A stretch of 64,000 nt of DNA from Spirochaetota bacterium (lineage in GTDB: Bacteria > Spirochaetota > UBA4802 > UB4802), in assembly GCA_029907515.1 (NCBI GenBank), contig JARYLT010000003.1:3448-67447 (forward strand), written 5' to 3'. Below the pieces are notes generated by a model. It saw only the letters and a list, made by a program, of their open reading frames with translations, was not told the origin of the DNA and ran no database searches. Made by a program: the position numbers and the translations under genes. Below, piece by piece: positions 3,377 through 47,152 of the stretch (position 1 is its first letter; each line of letters begins with the position of its first letter).

Positions 3377-3527
3377 TGCTGTGTTACGTTTAATGCCTTT
3401 AAAATTATATCGTTAAATGACATAAAAACTAGAAATAAAAAATGTCAACAATTTTTTATTTTTTAATATTTACATCATCTGTCTGATGTTTATCTATGCT
3501 CTGTTCCACAGGGCATGATTGCGAAAG

Positions 3528-3617
3528 TCAGGTACGAATACCAAGCTTTGGAAATACATAAATATTCAAAGCAAACCACAGTGCCATAAGGATCAAAAAC
3601 CATATTGCTTCTTTCAT
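3528..3617 (-). CDS. small hydrophobic peptide (29 aa), hypothetical
   Basis: MKEAIWFLILMALWFALNIYVFPKLGIRT, with a single predicted TM helix. Lies between the selenoprotein gene and the trp leader. Weak SD. Below the ORF-track size cutoff. Confidence 0.2.
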   Translation of the reverse strand: MKEAIWFLILMALWFALNIYVFPKLGIRT

Positions 3618-3635: not shown

Positions 3636-3941
3636 TTATCCACAGGATGAACCTGTATCAACCATAAAACCAGCACCATACGGTGTGTCCACAAAATCTA
3701 TGGTAATGTTGGTTCCAGCATCCATAAACCTTGCAATATCGCTGTCATACATTACGGGGATTTCGTTTGCAATTACTACTGTATCTTTTGTGTTTTCTGA
3801 CTCATCCAGAGCCAGTCCCAGACGGGGGCCGCCTCATCCAATACCGGCAAAAACAAGTCTTAATCCAGGCTGCTTAAATTCAACATCTTTGGCAGCTTCA
3901 ATAATTTTTTGTTTAGCTGAATCTGTAATAGTTATGTTCAT
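3636..3941 (-). CDS. HesB/IscA-like iron-sulfur cluster insertion protein with an in-frame UGA at the conserved Cys position (candidate selenoprotein)
   Basis: Minus-strand translation is MNITITDSAKQKIIEAAKDVEFKQPGLRLVFAGIG-[TGA]-GGPRLGLALDESENTKDTVVIANEIPVMYDSDIARFMDAGTNITIDFVDTPYGAGFMVDTGSSCG. The TGA at 3834-3836 is in frame and aligns with the Cys of the A-type carrier G-C-x-G motif. The C-terminal SSCG is retained. It is absent from the ORF track because of the TGA. Confidence 0.6.
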
Positions 3942-7799: not shown

Positions 7800-8190
7800 T
7801 CATTTTGACACTGTACATGTATCCGTTGCTATTTTGACGTCGAACATTAATGCTTTGTCATTTTGTTGATTAATAATTATACAATGTCATTTCGGCAACG
7901 AACATGTCTACTTTGTCATTTCGACGAACTCAGTGAGGAGAAATCTTAATACAAATTTATACACATGGAGGGTAGCAATAGTAATAACAGCACCGTAATA
8001 GCAATCCCCAGATGAGCGTGGCAATCACAATGTGTGGCTGCCATCCTGAGTGAAGTAAATCATCGTGGGGAGTTCCGATTTTATCGGGACACCAAAGGAT
8101 ATTGTCGTTAATGGCTTAAAAGATTCTTCGTCCCGACTTCATCGGGACTTAGAATGATGGTATCTTTACGTCATTGCAAGTTCTAAAGCA
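7800..8190. repeat. intergenic repeat block: about 5 degenerate tandem units (period ~29 bp) of TGTCATTTCGACGAAC, then GTGAGGAGAAATCT and short GC hairpins (CCGATTTTATCGG, GTCCCGACTTCATCGGGAC)
   Basis: Unit starts near 7801, 7830, 7857, 7886 and 7915. The terminal copy GTCATTTCGACGAACTCAGTGAGGAGAAATCT recurs in inverted orientation at 17161-17200. Non-coding. Confidence 0.6.
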
Positions 8191-8274: not shown

Positions 8275-9378
8275 ATGAAAAATAAATGTAATATTAACTC
8301 CTTAGCGCAGTCAGTTATTGTATGTGTCATGCTTGGCATGGGGTTTATGTCAAATTCTGCTTTTGCAGAATCCGTATTTTTGAAGGATGGAAGTATCATT
8401 GAAGGTGATATAGTCAAGGAGACCGATAAAGCTACGACAGTAAAGACAAGGGAAGGGAAGACCGTAACGATACAGCGGAAGGATATTTTGAGGACGCTGG
8501 TAAATGAAAGCTATAAGACACGGATGTATATTATGAAAAGTAACAAGGAGGTATTAGGGGTATACATTGTAGAAGAGGATAATGAGAGCTATACGTACAG
8601 GACAGAGTTGCAATCAGCGGAGGAATATAAGATAAATAAGGACGATGTATTATTTGTTTCAAAGATACCGCCCAAGGATTTTATAGATGAGGAGGTACAG
8701 AAGAAAGCAGCGGAATTAGGGATAAAGAAGAAGTATACACGGGAAGAGAACCTGAAATGGCGCGCACCGTTTATACGGGTGGCGTATTCAAATTATGTGC
8801 AATATGATGATGAACTGGAATATTTATTTCCAGAACCAGCGCCAGCTTTACTATTAGATATTTTTTTCTGGCGTTTTAGAGATGAAAAGGGTAATGGATT
8901 TGATATAATGGGAAGGTTACGTAATCATGGAAGAAAGGCTGATTTGAATGGTGGTGATCCAAGAACTTCAAAATATTCACAATTATATAATATAACAATA
9001 TCACCTACACTTCCATATAGTACTGATTTCTTTTTGAATTCAATCTCAGGAGGGTTACGATATGCATATGGGTGGTATGTTGGATATGTAATGGTACAGC
9101 CGTATATATTTGCATTATATCAATATGGGATGATTAATTCAATGATTTCTTATAATGATGGTGTAAGTGATAAAACAAAAGATATAAATATGAACACACA
9201 TGGTTATCAGGCGGGAGCAGGTGTTGATGTAGGGCTTTTTTCCTACTTTGGAATATTTATTGAAGTAAGCTACGGGTATGCAAAAGCCAAATTCGCTAAT
9301 GGTGAAGCTTATAATTTTGATGGCATTTCAGTATATTATGGAGTAAGCTGGTGCACATCGTTTGGTTTGATTGAGTGA
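8275..9378 (+). CDS. secreted hypothetical protein, paralog A (possible outer-membrane beta-barrel C-terminus)
   Basis: GGAGGG SD. Signal peptide with cleavage at SAFA-ES. Residues from about 30 to 167 are identical to the downstream paralog. The C-terminal half is rich in Tyr/Gly/aromatic alternation and ends ...GVSWCTSFGLIE. Confidence 0.8.
   Translation: MKNKCNINSLAQSVIVCVMLGMGFMSNSAFAESVFLKDGSIIEGDIVKETDKATTVKTREGKTVTIQRKDILRTLVNESYKTRMYIMKSNKEVLGVYIVEEDNESYTYRTELQSAEEYKINKDDVLFVSKIPPKDFIDEEVQKKAAELGIKKKYTREENLKWRAPFIRVAYSNYVQYDDELEYLFPEPAPALLLDIFFWRFRDEKGNGFDIMGRLRNHGRKADLNGGDPRTSKYSQLYNITISPTLPYSTDFFLNSISGGLRYAYGWYVGYVMVQPYIFALYQYGMINSMISYNDGVSDKTKDINMNTHGYQAGAGVDVGLFSYFGIFIEVSYGYAKAKFANGEAYNFDGISVYYGVSWCTSFGLIE
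8362..8773 (+). repeat. 412-bp segment identical to 9631-10042 (shared 5' coding module of the tandem paralogs)
   Basis: Base-for-base identity on direct comparison of the two stretches, with sharp divergence on both flanks. Confidence 0.85.
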
Positions 9379-9543
9379 ATTTGATTTAATTACTAATGAT
9401 TTTGTTTTGTATCTCTTAATAATTTTATATAAAGAATGGTCAGTTAAAAACAGTGATATGCATGCAGGGTATATAAAATAACTAATGAATAATAATAGCC
9501 TGGGACATTGAAATAGGTAGATAATTTGTATAGGAGAGCTTTC

Positions 9544-10647
9544 ATGAAGAAGATAGCAAGAGACTTTTTTTTAGCACACATACTTATAGTTAGTTGTGTT
9601 ATTGTATGGTTTATGTTTTCAGGGAATGTATTTGCAGAATCCGTATTTTTGAAGGATGGAAGTATCATTGAAGGTGATATAGTCAAGGAGACCGATAAAG
9701 CTACGACAGTAAAGACAAGGGAAGGGAAGACCGTAACGATACAGCGGAAGGATATTTTGAGGACGCTGGTAAATGAAAGCTATAAGACACGGATGTATAT
9801 TATGAAAAGTAACAAGGAGGTATTAGGGGTATACATTGTAGAAGAGGATAATGAGAGCTATACGTACAGGACAGAGTTGCAATCAGCGGAGGAATATAAG
9901 ATAAATAAGGACGATGTATTATTTGTTTCAAAGATACCGCCCAAGGATTTTATAGATGAGGAGGTACAGAAGAAAGCAGCGGAATTAGGGATAAAGAAGA
10001 AGTATACACGGGAAGAGAACCTGAAATGGCGCGCACCGTTTATGCGCTTTGGGTATTCAAACTTTGGAGTTTATATAGATTCTGATATTAATGATGCATA
10101 TTCCGAGAGCCGTAACATTAATGCTTTCATTGATATATTCCCCTGGCGGTTTAGAAATGAAAGTGGGAATGGATTTGATGCCATGATAAGAGCACGTTTT
10201 GTAGGCAATTTTGATGAAATTAATCCCACTGATCCAAGAACACAAACATTTTTAAAATTATATCAAGTTACTATAGACGAAAGCTATGAATCCAAACTCA
10301 ACATTGGTCAGATTTGTGGTGGAGTCAGATATGCCTACAGCATGTATTATGGTGTTTTGATACAACCCTATGTGTATGGATTATTGCAATTGTTTGTATT
10401 TCATGATGAAATAAAAATTGAATCTCTTAATTCAAATGCTATTGATGAACAGGTGTCATCGTCAAAATTGGGATACCAGTTTGGTGCAGGAGTTGATTTT
10501 GGAATAACCTCATACGTTGGTTTGTTTATTGAAGGAATGTATAGCTACATTGGCGCAAAATTTAAAGATGGAAAGACAAGAAATGTTGATGGTTACTATA
10601 TTTACTATGGAGTAACCTGGCGTACATCGTATGGTTTGATTGAGTGA
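9544..10647 (+). CDS. secreted hypothetical protein, paralog B
   Basis: ATG at 9544 has a TAGGAGAG SD; the ORF-track TTG start at 9526 is less likely. Signal peptide cleaved at NVFA-ES. The next ~137 aa are identical to paralog A, and the C-terminal half is diverged (ends GVTWRTSYGLIE). Confidence 0.8.
   Translation: MKKIARDFFLAHILIVSCVIVWFMFSGNVFAESVFLKDGSIIEGDIVKETDKATTVKTREGKTVTIQRKDILRTLVNESYKTRMYIMKSNKEVLGVYIVEEDNESYTYRTELQSAEEYKINKDDVLFVSKIPPKDFIDEEVQKKAAELGIKKKYTREENLKWRAPFMRFGYSNFGVYIDSDINDAYSESRNINAFIDIFPWRFRNESGNGFDAMIRARFVGNFDEINPTDPRTQTFLKLYQVTIDESYESKLNIGQICGGVRYAYSMYYGVLIQPYVYGLLQLFVFHDEIKIESLNSNAIDEQVSSSKLGYQFGAGVDFGITSYVGLFIEGMYSYIGAKFKDGKTRNVDGYYIYYGVTWRTSYGLIE
9631..10042 (+). 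repeat. second copy of the identical 412-bp module
   Basis: Identical to 8362-8773. Confidence 0.85.
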
Positions 10648-17120: not shown

Positions 17121-17290
17121 TGTCATTTCGAATCCCGATTTTATCGGGATGCTGTTGTAAAATAAGATTTCTCCTCACTGCGTTCGTCGAAATGACAGTA
17201 TGAAAACATTCGTCGAAATGACAGTATAAAAACATTCGTCAAAATGACAGTGTGAAAATGTTCGTCGAAATGACAACGTATAAAACATTA
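17121..17290. repeat. second locus of the same repeat family: hairpin ATCCCGATTTTATCGGGAT, then AGATTTCTCCTCACTGCGTTCGTCGAAATGAC, then 4 tandem ~27-bp units (CGTCGAAATGACAGTATAAAAACATT)
   Basis: Reverse complement of the motif at 7912-7952. Unit starts near 17176, 17201, 17228 and 17255. Confidence 0.6.
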
Positions 17291-26589: not shown

Positions 26590-27174
26590 CTATGATTCTT
26601 TTCTATATCGTGCTGCACGTGAAAGTGTGGGAAGAAATATTGGAGCACTTAAAAGAAAAAACAGAAATTCAAAGATTACATTACTTTTATGTGCAGGTTT
26701 GCCTTTTAAACGGCTGAGAAATGCATCAAAGGTGTTGCCGCTGAGATTACCAAAATAAATTAACCGGATAGCTATGATAATATGCCTGGCTGTTTTTTTG
26801 CCATAGTATTCGTAAAAATTTTTAGTCAATAATTCATCGGGGTTGCTATTGGTTTCAGCAAAGTGCTGTGCATACAGCAGCGCGAGTGTTTCATAATCAT
26901 CCGGTTGTGCAGAAAATTGCAGTGCAAGGAGAGAAATAATCTCTTCTTTTGATAATCCTGTTTGTAGAGCCTTTTTTGCATGAAACCATGCACAGTAAGG
27001 GCAGCTGTTTACTGCTGTCACAACCAGCATGATCTTTTCAATAAATGACCTGGTAATGTTACTATCTATCAGTAATCCAATGATTGAAGGAATATGGAAT
27101 ATAAGATATGCACTATCTTTACAAAGCAGTGAACAATTATAGATTCGTCTATCAAAGTTATGTTTCATTGTCAA
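26590..27174 (-). CDS. carboxymuconolactone decarboxylase family (AhpD-like) protein
   Basis: AhpD-core motif VNSCPYCAWFH. Exact start uncertain. Confidence 0.7.
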   Translation of the reverse strand: MTMKHNFDRRIYNCSLLCKDSAYLIFHIPSIIGLLIDSNITRSFIEKIMLVVTAVNSCPYCAWFHAKKALQTGLSKEEIISLLALQFSAQPDDYETLALLYAQHFAETNSNPDELLTKNFYEYYGKKTARHIIIAIRLIYFGNLSGNTFDAFLSRLKGKPAHKSNVIFEFLFFLLSAPIFLPTLSRAARYRKES

Positions 27175-39188: not shown

Positions 39189-40331
39189 ATGATTTATTTA
39201 GATAATGCTGCTACCAGTTACCCTAAACCTCAGTCTGTAATAAAAGCTGTAGCTGACTGTTTGCAGGATTATTGTGCAAATCCCGGGCGTTCAGGGCACA
39301 AACTTGCAATAGAGGCTGCACGAAAGGTGTTTGAAGCGCGGGAGACAGTTGCGCAGTTTTTTAATGTTACAGATTCCCGTAACGTTATTTTCACTTCAAA
39401 TGCAACCATGGCCATAAATTGTGCGTGTGCTGCAATTCTGGAAGATAGTGACCATGTAGTAGTTTCATCTATGGAACATAATGCGGTGATGCGACCATTG
39501 CGGTATCTGGAAAAAGAAGGAAAAATATCATTATCTTTTATTGAATCTGGTAGCAATGGAAAAATTACAGGTGATGTTACACAATTATTACAACCCAACA
39601 CCAGGCTTGTAGTCATAAATCATGCATCCAATGTCAATGGAGTAGTACAGGATATTGCTTCCATCACAGCAAAAATTAAAGCATATAATCATTCTATTAC
39701 GGTGCTTATTGATGCATCGCAGAGTGCCGGAGTACTGCCAATTGATATACAGAAGATTGGATGTGATTTTTTAGCGTTCACGGGGCACAAAGCTTTGTAT
39801 GGGCCACAGGGCATTGGCGGCTTAATTATTAATACAGATAGGCCATTAAAACCTTTTATTATGGGAGGCACAGGAAGCAAATCCGAAAGCCAGTATCAGC
39901 CTGAATTTTTGCCTGATAAATATGAAAGTGGTACAGTAAACCTTCCCGGTATTGTGGGATTGAAGGCAGGAATAGAATATGTTTGGCCACAAATGGAAAA
40001 GATACGTACTGAAGAAATGAAACATATCAAAAGAGTAATAGAGTGTTTGTCTGGAATTAAAGGTATAACTGTATATTGGAGTAATTCTTTTGAACATCAA
40101 ATTGGCGTTGTATCTTTTTCCCATGAATCAATTTCGTGCAGTGAAATAGGCCAGCGTCTTAATGATGAATATTCCATTTGTGTTCGTATTGGATTGCACT
40201 GTGCACCTCTTGCGCATGAAACTATAGGCAGTTATCCAGATGGCACCGTAAGGTTATCTGTTGGTGCATTTACAGAGGATAGCGATATCGATACATTTTG
40301 CAGGGCTATCGAACAAATAACAAAGGTATAA
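39189..40331 (+). CDS. cysteine desulfurase (class V aminotransferase; NifS/CsdA-like, possible selenocysteine lyase)
   Basis: PLP-lysine motif FTGHKALYGPQG and active-site Cys loop GLHCAP. Confidence 0.85.
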   Translation: MIYLDNAATSYPKPQSVIKAVADCLQDYCANPGRSGHKLAIEAARKVFEARETVAQFFNVTDSRNVIFTSNATMAINCACAAILEDSDHVVVSSMEHNAVMRPLRYLEKEGKISLSFIESGSNGKITGDVTQLLQPNTRLVVINHASNVNGVVQDIASITAKIKAYNHSITVLIDASQSAGVLPIDIQKIGCDFLAFTGHKALYGPQGIGGLIINTDRPLKPFIMGGTGSKSESQYQPEFLPDKYESGTVNLPGIVGLKAGIEYVWPQMEKIRTEEMKHIKRVIECLSGIKGITVYWSNSFEHQIGVVSFSHESISCSEIGQRLNDEYSICVRIGLHCAPLAHETIGSYPDGTVRLSVGAFTEDSDIDTFCRAIEQITKV

Positions 40332-40334
40332 AAA

Positions 40335-40586
40335 ATGAACTATTACCTGTTATTATTACCATCTGTACATGATGTGATGAAAGCTGAAAAGATTTTACTT
40401 AATGCAGGTGTTAATTTGAATGTAATAGCCACCCCACGAGAAATATCGCATAACTGTGGGGTGGTAATACGCTTTGAATCCAGTAATTTACATAAGCTGT
40501 TAGCCCTTCTTGAGGAACTACCTGTGGAAAAAAAGGTATTTAAAAAAGTTGATGATAATGTGTACGTTGAAGTTATTCAAGAGTAG
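40335..40586 (+). CDS. possible DUF3343 (putative Se/S carrier protein-like) small protein
   Basis: 83 aa. I tentatively match it to the DUF3343 pattern (small helical protein with conserved TPREIS..CG motif: ATPREISHNCG). Immediately downstream of the cysteine desulfurase. Confidence 0.55.
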   Translation: MNYYLLLLPSVHDVMKAEKILLNAGVNLNVIATPREISHNCGVVIRFESSNLHKLLALLEELPVEKKVFKKVDDNVYVEVIQE

Positions 40587-41168: not shown

Positions 41169-42056
41169 ATGGTTAACAGAGATAGTATTGATATAAAAGA
41201 TTTACCAGTTTTTCCCCAGGTTGCAATTAAGATTTTACAGATACAGGAAGATAATATTGACATCAGCTTCAAGGAACTGGAAAGCATCATTTTACTTGAT
41301 CCAGCATTAACGGCCAAAATACTGAAAGTGGCCAATTCAGCACTCTATGCGCGTCAGCGAGAGATCACCAATTTGCAGCAGGCCTTGACGTTACTTGGTT
41401 TCAAAATGGTAAAAAGCCTTGTGTTACTGGTTTCAGCTTCAAATGTTTACAGTAAAAACGTAAAATCGCAGCAACAGACAACCGCTGCAACTGTTACCAA
41501 AACATCAACAGCAATGATCTGGCGGCATTCGGTTGTTACCGCATTCATTTCAAAATATGTGGCTACCCGCATTAAAAATGATGAAAAAAAAGAGGATGTA
41601 TTTGTTGCTGGCCTTCTTCATGATATTGGCAGGCTTATCATGATGATACACTTCAGGGATAAATATGAGCAATACATTGCATATCTTAATCAGATGCAGT
41701 ATAAGGATATACGCGAAGTAGAAGAAAAAATTTTCGAAATAAACCACCAGGATGTAGGGAAGATAGTTCTGGAGAAATGGAATTTCCCCAATGAACTGAT
41801 TGATGCTGTGGCACAGCATCATGTAATACAGGTTGACTCAAAATATAAGACCACTGTCCAGATAGTAGGGCTGGCAAATCTGTTTGCAAAAATTATTGAA
41901 AATGAAAATCTTTCAGAAAATGACAGGGAATTGCTTACTGCCTTCAGCAAGGCATTAGGTATCACCCAGGAAGATTATAACTATCTCACAGAAGAGATTG
42001 TCAATACACTGAAAAATGATGAATTATATAAAATGAGCACTTCACTGATTGGATAA
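41169..42056 (+). CDS. HDOD domain signal-transduction protein
   Basis: HDOD signature (LLHDIGRLIMM, N-terminal ...LDPALTAKILKVANSALY). AGGAAG SD. Confidence 0.8.
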   Translation: MVNRDSIDIKDLPVFPQVAIKILQIQEDNIDISFKELESIILLDPALTAKILKVANSALYARQREITNLQQALTLLGFKMVKSLVLLVSASNVYSKNVKSQQQTTAATVTKTSTAMIWRHSVVTAFISKYVATRIKNDEKKEDVFVAGLLHDIGRLIMMIHFRDKYEQYIAYLNQMQYKDIREVEEKIFEINHQDVGKIVLEKWNFPNELIDAVAQHHVIQVDSKYKTTVQIVGLANLFAKIIENENLSENDRELLTAFSKALGITQEDYNYLTEEIVNTLKNDELYKMSTSLIG

Positions 42057-42063
42057 ACATTTT

Positions 42064-43440
42064 TTATATCCTGCTAAAAATAATAAAATCAATTATAGGT
42101 GCTTTTTTATACAGATGATAGCCACAGTACAGTGTTGTTGCTACAGATGCCAGCATGTAGCTGGTGCCTGGAAGTAACGGGAAGTATAGTATTGAAAATA
42201 ACGTAGCTGCAATATTTAAAATAAGATACAGACATGCAGCCATTGCAGCTTCAAATTGCAATTCCATATACAAAAGATAAATCATAAGATTAAGCGTCAA
42301 CATATGAAAGAATACAGCTATAAGTAAAATTCTCATGATATGAATATTAATTGTATGTGAATACCCCAAAAAATCCAGTATCTCGGGTAGCTTGATTAAA
42401 ATACCAACAGTCCATATCGACTGGAAAAATATAATACCCTTAATGCCATTTTTGAGTGATAGTAGCATCTTTTGTTTTTTTAGCTGTATATAGCGGAATG
42501 GGTCTTCCAGTATTTGTGATATAAATTCAAAGAATTTTTTATGAAAATCTGTTTCAGCAATAATTAAAAAATACACCAGTCCGGGTATCATAGTCAGGTA
42601 TGCCAAAAACACCGGTATATCATAAGTGATGTAATAGTAATACAGTGTACCGGGAATATGCTGGCCCTTCAAAAACCAGTAAAGCATTTTATCCGACCAT
42701 ATGGCCATATTAAAGAAGCATCCCATTAAAAAAATCCGTTTATGTTCTTTAAAAGAAGCAATAAATTCTTTATTTACTACAAATTTCTTAAGGGGATATG
42801 CAAATTGGGAGATAGTTATTAAAAGCAGGACTATGACAGCCTGCCCAATTGTGTAACCACACAATGCACCTGCAACACCATACAATTTTCCTAAATAAAG
42901 CACTCCATAAATACTGGCGATAGTTCCTGCTAAATAGCTGAAGAAAATTTTGTAATATGCTTTGAGCAGGGCAATATATACCAGCATGATCCACAGGATG
43001 TTAATAACAACAAAAAGTGAAACTAACGATAGTATATAAAGAGTTTGAAATTGAATGAATGAGAAATCATTAAAACACACAAATGCAAGAGCAGGCAGTA
43101 TTGACAGTATGGTTATAATAATTATTGCGGTTAACAGGGCTGTGGGAATGGTTTCATAATTTTCAATATACAGTTGATCAGCAATATAGCGTGAGAATAC
43201 ATAATGAAAACCACCTGATAAAAATAGTGAAAAAGCATACACATACACTATCGAAACAGTAAATAGTGAAGGATTGTCAGCAATTGCCCCAAATGTATAT
43301 GTTTGAATAATATATATAGTAAGTACTGATAATATCCATGGTCCTGCAACAATGATCATGCCCAGAAAGAAAGCCTGTACAATTGATGACAACGTTCCTT
43401 TGTGTAAAATTTTATATAATTCAAATCCTATCCCGGCCAT
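42064..43440 (-). CDS. pelG: Pel exopolysaccharide export protein PelG (MATE-like, 12 TM)
   Basis: Starts MAGIGFEL as PelG homologs do. About 12 predicted TM helices. Last gene of a pelD-F-G-ordered cluster. Confidence 0.8.
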   Translation of the reverse strand: MAGIGFELYKILHKGTLSSIVQAFFLGMIIVAGPWILSVLTIYIIQTYTFGAIADNPSLFTVSIVYVYAFSLFLSGGFHYVFSRYIADQLYIENYETIPTALLTAIIIITILSILPALAFVCFNDFSFIQFQTLYILSLVSLFVVINILWIMLVYIALLKAYYKIFFSYLAGTIASIYGVLYLGKLYGVAGALCGYTIGQAVIVLLLITISQFAYPLKKFVVNKEFIASFKEHKRIFLMGCFFNMAIWSDKMLYWFLKGQHIPGTLYYYYITYDIPVFLAYLTMIPGLVYFLIIAETDFHKKFFEFISQILEDPFRYIQLKKQKMLLSLKNGIKGIIFFQSIWTVGILIKLPEILDFLGYSHTINIHIMRILLIAVFFHMLTLNLMIYLLYMELQFEAAMAACLYLILNIAATLFSILYFPLLPGTSYMLASVATTLYCGYHLYKKAPIIDFIIFSRI

Positions 43441-43446
43441 ACATCC

Positions 43447-44874
43447 TCATTGTGTATACATGCCAATATATTTTGCATAAAGATTGTCATATGTTGCAAT
43501 AAGGTCTTTTTTATTATAAAACTGTATAACCTTATTCCTGTTTGCAGCTATCAGTTTATTACGGTAATCAGGATTATTGTATAGATAAATAACACCCTGG
43601 GCTAATTTTTCTGAATCTTTGGGGTCGGCTAAAAGAATATCATTGTAATCAAGCATTTCAGGAACATTGCCCACGCGGGTTGAGACCACAGGTATTCCTG
43701 CTGCATAAGCTTCTAAGATAACCAGTGGTTGCGCTTCCCGGATACTGGAAAGTACCACCACATCTAAAAATTTGTAATACTGGCGCACATCAGCTTTACC
43801 GGTGAATACTACTTTATCCTGAATCTGGAAGTTTTCAACAAGCTTAACGCAATCTTCATAATAACTTTCGTCTTCATCAGTTGGGCCAATAATGTAAAAT
43901 TTAACATTAGGGATTGATTCTGCAACAATCTTTGCCATGATGATAAAATTTTTAACATCTTTTATGGGAACAACCCGTGCTATAATCCCAATACTGAATT
44001 CCTTGCAGGTTTCTGTTTTTAAATCTAAATATCGATCTATTTCAATGCCATTGGGTATAACAAGTGTTTTTTCCCGCTTTGCCCCCTGAGCAATCTGAAT
44101 ATTGCGATTAACCTCAAAAAGAGATATAACACAATCAGAGTATTCATACGTAATAGCGCTTAAATCATTAAAGATGTTAATCCACATATCTCGCTGGTAG
44201 CCTTTAACCCACGTTGCGCGTTTTATGTCTATCTCACGTTCTTTGTTGTATAAACCATGCTCAGTCAGGATTACAGGTTTATTGTATTTAATCTTTGCAC
44301 TGGCAGCACATAGTCCTGCATATCCTGTTGATATGGTATGGTACAGGTCAGCCGGTGGCAGGTCCCAGGTCATAATCTTCATCATGTATTCATGTGATGA
44401 TCGCCATGCCCAGTAATAGTCAGAAAAGGGATATAAGGGATTTCGTATTGCATTATACTGAGTTACAATGTTAAAACTTGTAATATGTCGCTGCAGAGAA
44501 GATGGATCGTATCGGTGCTTATTAATAAGCTTAAAAATTTCACTGAATCGAGAAAAATCTTTTTTTTGCATCATATCATTGTGAAAGGATTCAATATTGC
44601 TGAAAAACGATGACTGTATTGACTTTTTGGGTTTTTCAACTGGGGCTGTCAGTAGCCTGTTAACAAGTCCAATCACGTTGGGTGGAAATAAATATTTTGG
44701 TTCGTCCTCTTCTGCTGATATTGCAAATATGATAAAGTTATAGTTGGTAAGCCCTGTAATTATATCCTGTATCCAGGCTGATACCCCTCCTGTTATGTAT
44801 GGATATGACCCTTCTGCGATAATACATATTGTTTTTTTTGATGGATCAGGTTTATTGATTGCTACAAAATCCAT
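43447..44874 (-). CDS. pelF: GT4-family glycosyltransferase PelF
   Basis: GT4 EX7E-type motif region (EHGLYNKEREIDIK), of PelF size (475 aa), located between the pelE-position gene and pelG. Confidence 0.75.
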   Translation of the reverse strand: MDFVAINKPDPSKKTICIIAEGSYPYITGGVSAWIQDIITGLTNYNFIIFAISAEEDEPKYLFPPNVIGLVNRLLTAPVEKPKKSIQSSFFSNIESFHNDMMQKKDFSRFSEIFKLINKHRYDPSSLQRHITSFNIVTQYNAIRNPLYPFSDYYWAWRSSHEYMMKIMTWDLPPADLYHTISTGYAGLCAASAKIKYNKPVILTEHGLYNKEREIDIKRATWVKGYQRDMWINIFNDLSAITYEYSDCVISLFEVNRNIQIAQGAKREKTLVIPNGIEIDRYLDLKTETCKEFSIGIIARVVPIKDVKNFIIMAKIVAESIPNVKFYIIGPTDEDESYYEDCVKLVENFQIQDKVVFTGKADVRQYYKFLDVVVLSSIREAQPLVILEAYAAGIPVVSTRVGNVPEMLDYNDILLADPKDSEKLAQGVIYLYNNPDYRNKLIAANRNKVIQFYNKKDLIATYDNLYAKYIGMYTQ

Positions 44875-45701
44875 TGATAGATTAACACCTCGGCATATTC
44901 TATATCGCTTACATCGTACTGAGAAATAATCGAAGCAATTGTTTTAATCCTGTCATAATGTTTTAAATTATAATGGCATTGAACCATTTTGAGCAGGCAA
45001 TATACAGGTTTGTATTGTATAGAATAACAATAAGCATAGAGCGATAGTGCATATTCATAATTCTCATCCAGTAAATAACTTTCAGCCAGAGCTATTTTTA
45101 TCCTTTTGTTTTTTGGTCGTAATGTATACGCTTTTACAAGATTTTCAATTGCCTGCTTGATATAAAACTTCTGAATTAGCTTCTGGCTTTCTAAAAGTGT
45201 AGCAAATTGTGTATAAAGACAACCAAGAAGATAATGGTAAATAAAGATATTATGGGTAGCTTTTTCCAGCTTTTTCTTTATTTTCTCAATTTTTGTTAAA
45301 AATGAATTTTCAATTGTGTTTAATCCTTCAGCAGCATACAGGGCTATTTCTGGATTGGGATCTTTAATCATGGTTCGTAATATTTTTACTGAGTGAGAGT
45401 TAGGGCGCATGGCTAATTTCTGTTGCGAAAATAACCGTGTAATTTCGTCCAGGTCCTGGGCTTCATCAATTAATGGTCGTAATGAAGTGGCTGCCATAAG
45501 GTAATGTTCTATACCCAGTAAGCCTTCAGAAAAAGCCTTACGCAATTTATGCTGAGTTTTAACAATATAAGGATTTTCAACAACATCATGCCTGAAAAAA
45601 TCAAAAGGGTTTTCAAATGAAAATAGTTTAATACTATCTTGATCATCTTTAGATGGAGTATAGTCAAAAATAAAATCTTCTTGAGGAAGAATGGTGCTCA
45701 T
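44862..45701 (-). CDS. helical repeat protein at the pelE position (atypical, no N-terminal TM helices)
   Basis: 279 aa, all-alpha, TPR-like C-terminal half. Call is positional only. Confidence 0.4.
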   Translation of the reverse strand: MSTILPQEDFIFDYTPSKDDQDSIKLFSFENPFDFFRHDVVENPYIVKTQHKLRKAFSEGLLGIEHYLMAATSLRPLIDEAQDLDEITRLFSQQKLAMRPNSHSVKILRTMIKDPNPEIALYAAEGLNTIENSFLTKIEKIKKKLEKATHNIFIYHYLLGCLYTQFATLLESQKLIQKFYIKQAIENLVKAYTLRPKNKRIKIALAESYLLDENYEYALSLYAYCYSIQYKPVYCLLKMVQCHYNLKHYDRIKTIASIISQYDVSDIEYAEVLIYQWIL

Positions 45702-45709
45702 GCTCTCAC

Positions 45710-47152
45710 CTATATTTTCTGCATTAACAGTAGATTTTCGGCCAGTAGTATAAGGTCTTCTTCAGATTGATGGTTGGATCGCAACGTACTGTATCCAATA
45801 ACTATTTCAGGATTAACTATCTGGCCTTTTACATAATATGTTTTTTTGCTGTTTTGTTCAATTAGCGATAAACTGAACATTGCTGCACCATCAAAATCCA
45901 TGTTGGGTAAAATGGCTGCAAACTGGAATGTTTCCTTATATTGAAATAATAATACTTTTCCCTTTGCCAGTTGTTGAACTAACTGAGCTATCTCTTTTAA
46001 TACAAGGAGTGCATCCTTCATTGAAAACTTTTCAACTATTTCAGCGCTATTAGTACATTCAACTATCAGTAATGACAAATTCAATTTATTATGCTGAGCG
46101 TTAGCAAATTCTTCCTTTAATACCTCATAAAATTCACTGATTGAATTAAAACCGGTTACGGGGTCAACCTCTTTATGTACCAGTGAGCTATACCTGATAG
46201 CATTACGGATAATTGGAGCTGCCAGGTCAGCAATCATGAGCAGTAACTGTTCAGTATAGAGATTATATTTTATAAAAGGTATTTTTTCAATATTGAGCGC
46301 CCCCCATACCTGGTTATCAATAGTAATGGGAACAGTAATAATGGAATTGCCATTATCAAGTGCCTTCAAGTTTTGATATTTCTGGAGCATTTTAATGGAA
46401 AACATGGTATTGTTTCGTACCGACCAGCCAATAAGGTTTTCCGTATCAAGGTTTGAAGGGGTACTATCAATGATGTCCTGTGTCCACCCATTATGTGCAA
46501 GCAGATGAATAGAGTTATTATCACGGTCATATTGCCATAATGAGCATTGCTGAGAACCGGTAAATTGAACAACGGCATTCAAGATATTAGGGTAAATATT
46601 TTCTAAATGTAATGTATTTAAGGCTATGATGGTTGAATACAATGAGATAAGTGAATTCTGCTGGCCTAAAATACGGTCCTGATATTCCTGATTAACCATT
46701 GAAACGGCTTCAAGTTCTCTTTTAAGCTTGGCAGCCTGCTCATCAAGTTCTTTGATGATATTTTTCTGGTTTTGAATAATGCGGCCTAAATTGTCACGTA
46801 TTTCGCCAAGAATAATAATAGCAATAAGCGATAGAAATAATAATGACGATAGATGCTGGTAACTAACCGGTGTGGTGATAGTTGTATACAGTATGTCTGT
46901 TGAATAATACAGATCACTGATTATAATATATGATGCTATGATTATCGTTACTGTAAGGAATGTAATAAGACCTGATTTTTTGCCATAAAACGAAGTAAAG
47001 AAGATTATAATAAATAGATATGGATTGTAGTGTATAGAAAGAAAACCAATATCGTCAGGATATTTGAGAATATTGATGATGAATACTGCTGTTACAAGAA
47101 CAATGATTTCAAGTGGAAATATTTTTTTAAATATTTTTACTATGATATCCAT
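45710..47152 (-). CDS. pelD: PelD-like c-di-GMP receptor (4 TM, coiled coil, GAF, degenerate GGDEF)
   Basis: N-terminal ~110 aa with 4 TM helices, a coiled coil (KELDEQAAKLKRELEAV) and a GAF-like middle domain. Architecture and size as PelD. Confidence 0.6.
   Translation of the reverse strand: MDIIVKIFKKIFPLEIIVLVTAVFIINILKYPDDIGFLSIHYNPYLFIIIFFTSFYGKKSGLITFLTVTIIIASYIIISDLYYSTDILYTTITTPVSYQHLSSLLFLSLIAIIILGEIRDNLGRIIQNQKNIIKELDEQAAKLKRELEAVSMVNQEYQDRILGQQNSLISLYSTIIALNTLHLENIYPNILNAVVQFTGSQQCSLWQYDRDNNSIHLLAHNGWTQDIIDSTPSNLDTENLIGWSVRNNTMFSIKMLQKYQNLKALDNGNSIITVPITIDNQVWGALNIEKIPFIKYNLYTEQLLLMIADLAAPIIRNAIRYSSLVHKEVDPVTGFNSISEFYEVLKEEFANAQHNKLNLSLLIVECTNSAEIVEKFSMKDALLVLKEIAQLVQQLAKGKVLLFQYKETFQFAAILPNMDFDGAAMFSLSLIEQNSKKTYYVKGQIVNPEIVIGYSTLRSNHQSEEDLILLAENLLLMQKI

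Follow-up and report, generated by a model that had tools for sequence, protein, structure and literature searches.

The DNA analyzed here is a 64-kb stretch from a Spirochaetota bacterium (assembly GCA_029907515.1, contig JARYLT010000003.1), which we refer to as the window and number from its first nucleotide. Its minus strand carries a HesB-like gene at 3636..3941, a predicted selenoprotein gene of 101 codons followed by a TAA stop codon (3638-3636). The frame contains a TGA codon at 3834..3836, which we read as selenocysteine (Sec, U36) on the basis of the TGA found at the homologous codon in relatives and of its alignment with a ligand cysteine. A predicted selenocysteine insertion sequence (SECIS) hairpin (3797..3815) lies downstream of this codon within the gene. 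The next gene on the same strand (3456..3617) is a second candidate selenoprotein gene, again with an in-frame TGA (3528..3530) and a predicted SECIS hairpin (3497..3515).

A HesB-like gene with an in-frame TGA codon

Conceptual translation of 3941..3636 gave MNITITDSAKQKIIEAAKDVEFKQPGLRLVFAGIG up to the TGA and GGPRLGLALDES directly beyond it, and the product ended with GFMVDTGSSCG in front of the TAA. The TGA was the sole internal stop. An earlier note on this DNA had described the minus-strand frame as open except for this one codon, and retranslation bore this out. With U replaced by C, the 101-amino-acid (aa) product passed the Pfam model PF01521 (Fe-S_biosyn) with 34.4 bits against a gathering threshold of 26.3 (E = 2.8e-8), and the match covered residues 1-94, crossing the TGA on both sides.

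We then aligned the product to solved A-type iron-sulfur (Fe-S) carriers. The TGA, which stands in the context GIG-U-GGPRLGLALDE, fell on the conserved first-ligand Cys of HI1723 (GGGCSG), Aq_1857, and Escherichia coli IscA. The suggestion that it occupies the ligand position of the G-C-x-G motif of these carriers therefore proved correct. As a stand-in for the window protein, the structure of the natural Cys homolog P0013 was modeled with AlphaFold (AF2; pLDDT 80). The top structural matches of this model were IscA, SufA, HI1723, Aq_1857, and DsrR, and Foldseek comparisons with A-type carriers gave a probability of 1.0 and template modeling scores of 0.64-0.73. The conserved chalcogen residues of the HesB-like protein are Sec36 and Cys100 only. 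Cys100 (codon 3644-3642) is invariant among the homologs and represents the only conserved C-terminal Cys. The C-terminal SSCG pointed out in the earlier note is thus retained with its single cysteine, but it does not provide the C-x-C pair of A-type carriers.

The TGA codon is conserved among related genes

Related loci were collected by two scans, one of genome contigs by full-length alignment and one of metagenome contigs with the peptide GGPRLGLAL, which excludes the Sec position. Together, they yielded 101 loci. The codon preceding GGPRLG was TGA in 90 of these and TGC or TGT in 11, and because the same codon is TGA in so many related loci, its coincidence with a ligand cysteine is more than chance. 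The TGA set comprised 54 distinct nucleotide versions, which encode proteins 38-100% identical to the window protein, and both flanks of the TGA are under purifying selection in these sequences. The closest named relatives were metagenome-assembled genomes (MAGs) of Spirochaetota, Leptospirales, and Leptospiraceae, in agreement with two window proteins that bear the NCBIfam Lepto_7_Nterm domain.

The earlier note had also stated that the gene is missed by calling of open reading frames (ORFs). The same is seen in a syntenic MAG contig (L001; order lon, HesB-like gene, trpEGDCFBA), in which gene callers split it into a 35-aa and a 59-aa piece. Such a split would fit a pseudogene or a sequencing error, that is, a nonsense mutation truncating a former Cys-type HesB/IscA gene, as would the Cys codons of two relatives: TGC in the closely related locus L103, and TGT in L007, where it is accompanied by a degenerate C-terminus. 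However, the identical TGA occurs in the 54 distinct sequences, which come from many samples and show selection on both flanks, and the window gene has no further stops or frameshifts. The covarying hairpin downstream of the TGA and the same signature of TGA plus hairpin in the neighboring small gene likewise contradict a decayed gene. Because the same TGA with intact flanks is found across many lineages, a pseudogene or sequencing error is considered ruled out; we regard it as extremely improbable.

Cys forms were found in L007, in L103, and in Desulfomicrobium. The close relative L103 (1180-1700, Logan SRR20140229) combines TGC at the HesB-like site with an intact SECIS-like hairpin. Its HesB-like gene is frameshifted, and its downstream small gene retains the TGA. 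This locus represents either a recent Sec-to-Cys conversion or an assembly error. In its combination of TGC and intact hairpin it is similar to a HesB-like gene of the Cys form in Desulfitobacterium, for which a "remnant SECIS" has been reported (PMC1794560).

A different explanation is that the TGA encodes a standard amino acid, either in a genome using code 4 (Trp) or code 25 (Gly) or by near-cognate read-through. Public metagenome annotations do show W at this position: among the metagenome homologs obtained in the protein search were full-length ones with "W" at the Sec site, besides fragments that begin right behind it and a small number of Cys forms. But the DNA behind the "W" homologs is TGA, and these genes fail to translate to the query under table 11. 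The "W" calls are TGA read under code 4 and are artefacts of gene calling on short contigs. Where relatives have a sense codon at the homologous site, the residue is Cys, never Trp or Gly. In the window, TGA ends 10 of the 42 long ORFs and does not occur internally in 18,758 long-ORF codons, and in several family members TGA is found within the gene and again as its stop codon. Codes 4 and 25 are therefore ruled out for this genome, and reading of the TGA as a standard amino acid by any route seems very improbable.

A conserved hairpin follows the TGA codon

RNAalifold analysis of the 54 TGA-type sequences predicted one hairpin, with columns 22-28 pairing to columns 34-40. In the window, it corresponds to 3815-3797 on the minus strand (CUGGCUC-UGGAU-GAGUCAG), with 7 base pairs (bp) and the apical loop at 3808-3804. 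The stem begins 18 nucleotides (nt) and the loop 25 nt past the UGA. In the alignment, 97.1% of the cells were paired, compared with 16-47% in slid controls in which the 3' arm was moved by 1-3 columns. The pairs covary: pair 22-40 is CG in 30, UA in 11, and UG in 7 of the sequences, and pair 24-38 is GC in 37, GU in 12, and UA in 2. Synonymous sites are frozen inside the hairpin (GCT in 54/54, CTG in 53/54, GAT in 49/54, GAG in 54/54), and the Gly (GGN) and Arg (CGN) codons immediately upstream of it have all four bases at their third position.

Published criteria for bacterial SECIS elements are a loop of 3-9 nt, a stem of 4-16 bp, a free energy of at most -7.5 kcal/mol, a G as first or second loop nucleotide with G or U next to it, and a distance of 16-37 nt from the UGA (PMC13188914). 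The hairpin at 3815-3797 agrees with every one of them: it has a 5-nt loop, UGGAU (G at position 2, then G), 7 bp, a distance of 25 nt, and -9.1 kcal/mol for the hairpin alone. A SECIS hairpin, as anticipated after the UGA, is therefore present, conserved, and in line with the published definition (PMC13188914).

In the mechanism that we propose, which follows that of other bacteria, the hairpin within the coding sequence would serve as the SECIS and be bound by SelB-GTP-Sec-tRNA(Sec). The bound complex would deliver Sec once the UGA enters the ribosomal A site. Sec would thereby replace the first ligand Cys in an A-type Fe-S-carrier fold, and the peptide GGPRLGLALDE may be conserved in part because its codons build the hairpin RNA. 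We infer that Sec is actually inserted at the TGA at 3836-3834.

A second candidate selenoprotein gene downstream

The small gene (3456..3617, minus strand) begins 18 nt after the HesB-like stop codon and opens at ATG 3617 with a 29-codon hydrophobic ORF, MKEAIWFLILMALWFALNIYVFPKLGIRT, which is conserved at the protein level in related loci. Past the TGA at 3528..3530 (minus strand; candidate U30) it continues as LSQSCPVEQSIDKHQTDDVNIKK to a TAA at 3458-3456. The product MKEAIWFLILMALWFALNIYVFPKLGIRT-U-LSQSCPVEQSIDKHQTDDVNIKK would comprise ~53 aa; a single transmembrane helix is predicted at its N-terminus, and a T-U-x4-C motif comes after it. The TGA is conserved in 42 loci (21 distinct), where it follows ...PK[LF]G[IV]xT.

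The predicted second SECIS hairpin (3497..3515, minus strand; UGCCCUG-UGGAA-CAGAGCA, loop 3508-3504) has its loop 19 nt past the UGA and 6 of 7 bp formed. Its extended form reaches -9.1 kcal/mol, and it agrees with the bacterial SECIS criteria. Five stem haplotypes were found in the related loci, all of them paired (UGCCCUG/CAGAGCA, UGUUCGC/GCGAACA, UGUCCUG/CAGGACG, UGCUCUC/GAGAGAU, and UGCUCCC/GGGAGCA), and the loop begins with UGGA in all five.

An exhaustive HMMER search extended the small-protein family to P0016-P0030 and added 14 more distant members, 13 of which show "W" at the candidate Sec position. The DNA was readable for four of these 13 (L105, L106, L107, and L108), and all four have TGA. 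Equivalent hairpins occur in the distant TGA members, here with the loops AGGU, AGUU, or GGUC, located 17-22 nt past the UGA. A single true Cys homolog (TGC) was found, P0027 of locus L104. It runs through the same motif, has no hairpin, and is located 5 nt upstream of a gene encoding a DsbD_TM plus thioredoxin protein. In L107, the two genes are swapped: a HesB-like gene (QGFG-TGA-GGPRLGLVLDD) directly follows the small gene.

One could argue that the small gene consists of the 29-codon ORF only, which would end at the TGA, and that the hairpin is a regulatory element or a terminator instead of a SECIS. The 29-aa hydrophobic peptide is itself conserved, the tails after the TGA are short, variable, and low in complexity, and the Cys homolog found is a single one, all of which would suit such a gene. 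But the frame stays open for 16-39 codons past the TGA in every lineage. Moreover, [LMI]-[SA]-x-x-C is conserved in frame after the TGA, its S/A codon wobbles synonymously upstream of the stem, and a 3-nt insertion in one clade keeps the frame; these features argue for translation past the TGA. The hairpin lacks a U-tract, and a terminator scan found none. A G-containing loop at 17-22 nt from the UGA recurs in the distant members, and the homolog with TGC both continues through the motif and is devoid of the hairpin. We therefore consider it unlikely that the gene ends at the TGA. Judged from its sequence, the downstream gene apparently specifies another small membrane selenoprotein, one that is not yet catalogued.

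The Pfam and NCBIfam models gave no hit to 15 variants of the small protein at E values up to 10, although the HMMER filters may hide very weak ones. The 119-family inventory of PMC13188914 contains no family with a matching Pfam or NCBIfam identifier for it. A literature search for a small membrane selenoprotein returned nothing relevant.

Assignment to the HesB-like selenoproteins

The HesB-like selenoprotein family reportedly goes back to work of Kryukov and Gladyshev in 2004. It was included in the 2006 survey of Zhang et al. (PMC1794560), and its motif is given as UxGP, with TIGR01911 as the representing model (PMC13188914). The window protein carries this motif (GIG-U-GGP). It is 36% identical over its full length to the HesB-like selenoprotein of G. 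sulfurreducens (E = 1e-15), with both U and the C-terminal Cys aligned; the sequence of the latter reads ...GFGUGGPRLGLVLDEP... around the Sec (supplement file 4, PMC1794560). A Desulfuromonas member showed 46% identity over the N-terminal 72 residues (E = 3e-17). Aligned with these selenoproteins and with Cys homologs from L007, L103, and Desulfomicrobium, the protein thus behaved as the earlier note had envisaged. For one member of the family, that of M. maripaludis, the selenoprotein nature was confirmed by 75Se labelling (PMC11097638). We hold it to be highly probable that the TGA is a Sec codon in a new member of this known family.

Several results weigh against a Sec codon in a HesB-like selenoprotein gene. 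First, the window protein did not reach the cut-offs of the two NCBI models for the family: TIGR01911 (HesB_rel_seleno) gave 43.3 bits against a cut-off of 66.35, and NF038090 (IscA_HesB_Se) gave 50.6 bits against 85. Nine other TGA-type members were also below both cut-offs (34-52 bits for TIGR01911), and the Desulfomicrobium Cys form was the only one passing NF038090 (98.4 bits). Second, the 66 nt after the UGA folded no better than shuffled sequences when folded as a single sequence (z = -0.58), and Rfam contained no matching SECIS family, either at the gathering threshold or at E values up to 10. The SECIS case is comparative for these two reasons. Even there, Cys forms have mostly GCC and GAC at the codons frozen inside the hairpin, a comparison confounded by codon bias because it is mostly with GC-rich Desulfomicrobium. 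Third, tRNA-Sec, selA, selB, and selD were not found in the 64-kb window by a search that included Pfam scans of 40 window ORFs for SelA, SelB, and SelD. ARAGORN detected no tRNA-Sec in 60 related loci, and tblastn with an E. coli SelD query detected no SelD in the related loci, which total ~680 kb, or in the window DNA.

On the other side stands the duplication of the signal. Because two adjacent in-frame TGAs are followed by hairpins that share a UGGA loop, the lineage very probably decodes Sec and would therefore require selenium. We infer that selABCD are encoded elsewhere in the genome.

Possible functions of the HesB-like protein

The three-ligand pattern of A-type carriers, C-x(n)-C-x-C, does not occur in the HesB-like protein, which has U36 and C100 only. 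TIGR00049 gave 44.7 bits against a cut-off of 58.8, and the cut-offs for IscA, SufA, and ErpA were missed as well. The earlier note had taken both flanks of the TGA together for a coherent 101-aa A-type carrier. The coherence stands, as PF01521 spans both flanks, but the label is overstated, because the third ligand Cys is absent and the cut-offs of the carrier models are not reached. Since only Sec36 and Cys100 are conserved, the protein is, as far as its primary structure tells, not a canonical A-type Fe-S carrier.

Our tentative proposal is a role as redox (selenol/thiol) or chalcogen-transfer carrier; we give it slightly less than an even chance, and it draws on motifs and gene neighborhood. 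DsrR, one of the structural matches, has the IscA fold but is not known to hold a cluster. The proposal follows from this cluster-free use of the fold, from the restriction of conserved chalcogens to Sec36 and Cys100, from the U-x4-C motif of the partner at the membrane, and from redox-related neighbors. The HesB-like and the small gene are adjacent in two gene orders, which suggests a functional pair. The HesB-like protein may work with the product of the next gene (3617..3456). For the wider proposal, the chances seem to us about even: the two genes would form a conserved two-selenoprotein module, in which the partner stands for a family, so far uncatalogued, of single-pass membrane proteins that are ~50-60 aa long and carry T-Sec-x4-Cys beside the membrane, and the two proteins would constitute a membrane-anchored selenol/thiol relay.

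The main functional rival accepts the Sec reading and takes the protein for a true A-type carrier, in which the two Sec and two Cys of a homodimer would ligate a [2Fe-2S] or [4Fe-4S] cluster for transfer to apo-proteins. The small downstream protein would then be unrelated. The PF01521 match, the IscA/SufA fold, and the location of Sec at a ligand position are in accord with such a carrier, and IscA-type carriers coordinate clusters between subunits (the matches to the model include PDB 1x0g). Two points accordingly count against a redox or chalcogen role: a dimer could still bind a cluster in this way, and the relay with the small partner is deduced only from motifs and neighborhood. However, the missing third ligand Cys (C-x-C) and the missed carrier cut-offs argue against an Fe-S carrier, as does the use of the same fold by DsrR. 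In addition, no isc, suf, or nif genes were found adjacent to the HesB-like gene in the window and the related loci, and in both gene orders a gene for a T-U-x4-C membrane protein accompanies it. The M. maripaludis mutant of the HesB-like gene has no nitrogen-fixation phenotype, and the literature assigns no function to the family (PMC11097638). Overall, we rate a role in Fe-S cluster delivery, including an unrelated small protein, as rather unlikely.

In another TGA-type clade (L060-L080), a divergently transcribed Pyr_redox_2 gene, encoding a pyridine-nucleotide-disulfide oxidoreductase, recurs within 3 kb of the HesB-like gene. Further neighbors in these loci encode rubrerythrin, cytochrome bd subunits, and a hexapeptide transferase. 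This neighborhood looks like an oxygen or oxidative-stress context.

Near the HesB-like gene, lon was present in 34 loci and trpE in 24. A functional linkage to these genes was set aside, and we read their presence as synteny among related genomes.

Putative selenium-linked genes and other features of the window

On the plus strand, 39189..40331 encodes a class-V aminotransferase of the TIGR01977 clade, a member of the cysteine-desulfurase family (449.6 bits against a cut-off of 377; Pfam Aminotran_5). Its second-best NCBIfam model was the selenocysteine lyase SclA (NF040779), with 348.8 bits against a cut-off of 525, which was not reached. Four nt after this gene, 40335..40586 (plus strand) encodes a PF11823 (DUF3343) protein, a putative Se/S carrier (64.1 bits against a gathering threshold of 25). 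Of the selenium-delivery role that had been suggested for this pair (39189-40586), the identities of the two proteins hold, as TIGR01977 and PF11823. Pairing of a Sec lyase with a YedF-type protein has been linked to selenium use but is not treated as specific (PMC5322559). The pair thus lends circumstantial support to the Sec reading, and the 39189..40331 enzyme may mobilize selenium. An ADP-forming acyl-CoA synthetase is encoded just upstream of the pair.

Two scans for ORFs that read through TGA revealed no further selenoproteins in the window. A read-through pair at 42064-44943 ([498, 460]) turned out to be two adjacent genes, one for PelG and one for a glycosyltransferase containing DUF3492. 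The AhpD-like family is known to include selenoproteins; the AhpD/CMD-family protein encoded at 26590-27174 (minus strand) was rejected as a selenoprotein, because it carries CPYC, the Cys form, and has no in-frame TGA.

The genes at 42064-47152 (minus strand) form a Pel-like exopolysaccharide cluster with PelG, a DUF3492 plus GT1 glycosyltransferase, and a 279-aa ORF, followed by a GAF-GGDEF diguanylate cyclase. Upstream of this cluster, an HDOD/HD-domain protein is encoded at 41169-42056. The two proteins with the NCBIfam Lepto_7_Nterm (LA_0442/LA_0875) domain are tandem paralogs, encoded at 8275-9378 and 9526-10647. A 300-nt block is 100% identical between them (8362-8661 = 9631-9930), and the remainder is 74-79% identical, which suggests recent gene conversion. 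Finally, a 26-nt unit, TTCGTCGAAATGACAGTATGAAAACA, is present in ~4 tandem copies in the intergenic region 17183-17284, and an inverted copy of this repeat (35 nt, 97% complementary) is located in the intergenic region 7914-7948. The element at 17.2 kb and 7.9 kb looks like a dispersed intergenic repeat.

Implications and comparison with known systems

The HesB-like gene belongs to a known family and is a modest finding by itself; what raises its interest is the small partner and the conserved pairing. The scores below both NCBI cut-offs may explain why public records of this HesB-like clade are split (35 aa plus 59 aa) or mistranslated with Trp. Selenoproteome counts for MAGs of the Spirochaetota type are therefore likely too low, and the annotation of the clade would be mended by a model based on our 54 sequences. 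Selenium is confirmed in the M. maripaludis member of the HesB-like selenoproteins, yet no phenotype is known for its mutant (PMC11097638). A conserved partner that is itself an apparent new selenoprotein with U-x4-C at the membrane makes a concrete hypothesis testable. If true, the two-selenoprotein module would be the first functional handle on HesB-like selenoproteins.

Like other HesB-like selenoproteins, the window protein falls within a size of ~95-105 aa, has the PF01521 fold with Sec at the position of the first ligand Cys, and combines the U-G-G-P motif and at least one C-terminal Cys with an intragenic SECIS. Unlike them, it has a single C-terminal Cys instead of a Cys-rich tail and is paired with a candidate small membrane selenoprotein. 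Its relatives are Spirochaetota and Leptospirales, a phylum that was not credited with the family in the 2006 survey (PMC1794560). Compared with the bSECISearch consensus, whose prototype is E. coli fdhF, both window hairpins are compliant and located within the ORF; they differ in that a loop UGGA(N) is common to two adjacent genes and in that Rfam holds no matching SECIS model. With the A-type carriers IscA, SufA, and ErpA (TIGR00049; PDB 1r94, 1x0g, 2d2a, and 2apn), the HesB-like protein shares the fold and the first-ligand position, but Cys is replaced by Sec, one of the two C-terminal ligand Cys is missing, and an isc/suf context is lacking.

For the small protein, the nearest lead is TsoA (NF045695), which was reportedly described by Haft and Tolstoy in 2025 with a LULAXC motif, together with other selenoproteins with short motifs. 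Its neighbor family, TsoB, is DsbD-type. We compared the two by description only, so that TsoA is a lead and not a test. The spacing from U to C is one residue off, and NF045695 matched none of the 15 variants. Yet both proteins are small and carry a Sec followed by a Cys a few residues on (U-L-A-x-C in TsoA, U-[LM]-[SA]-x-x-C in the window family), and the DsbD-type neighbor TsoB has its counterpart in the DsbD_TM plus thioredoxin gene beside the Cys homolog of the small protein in one locus.

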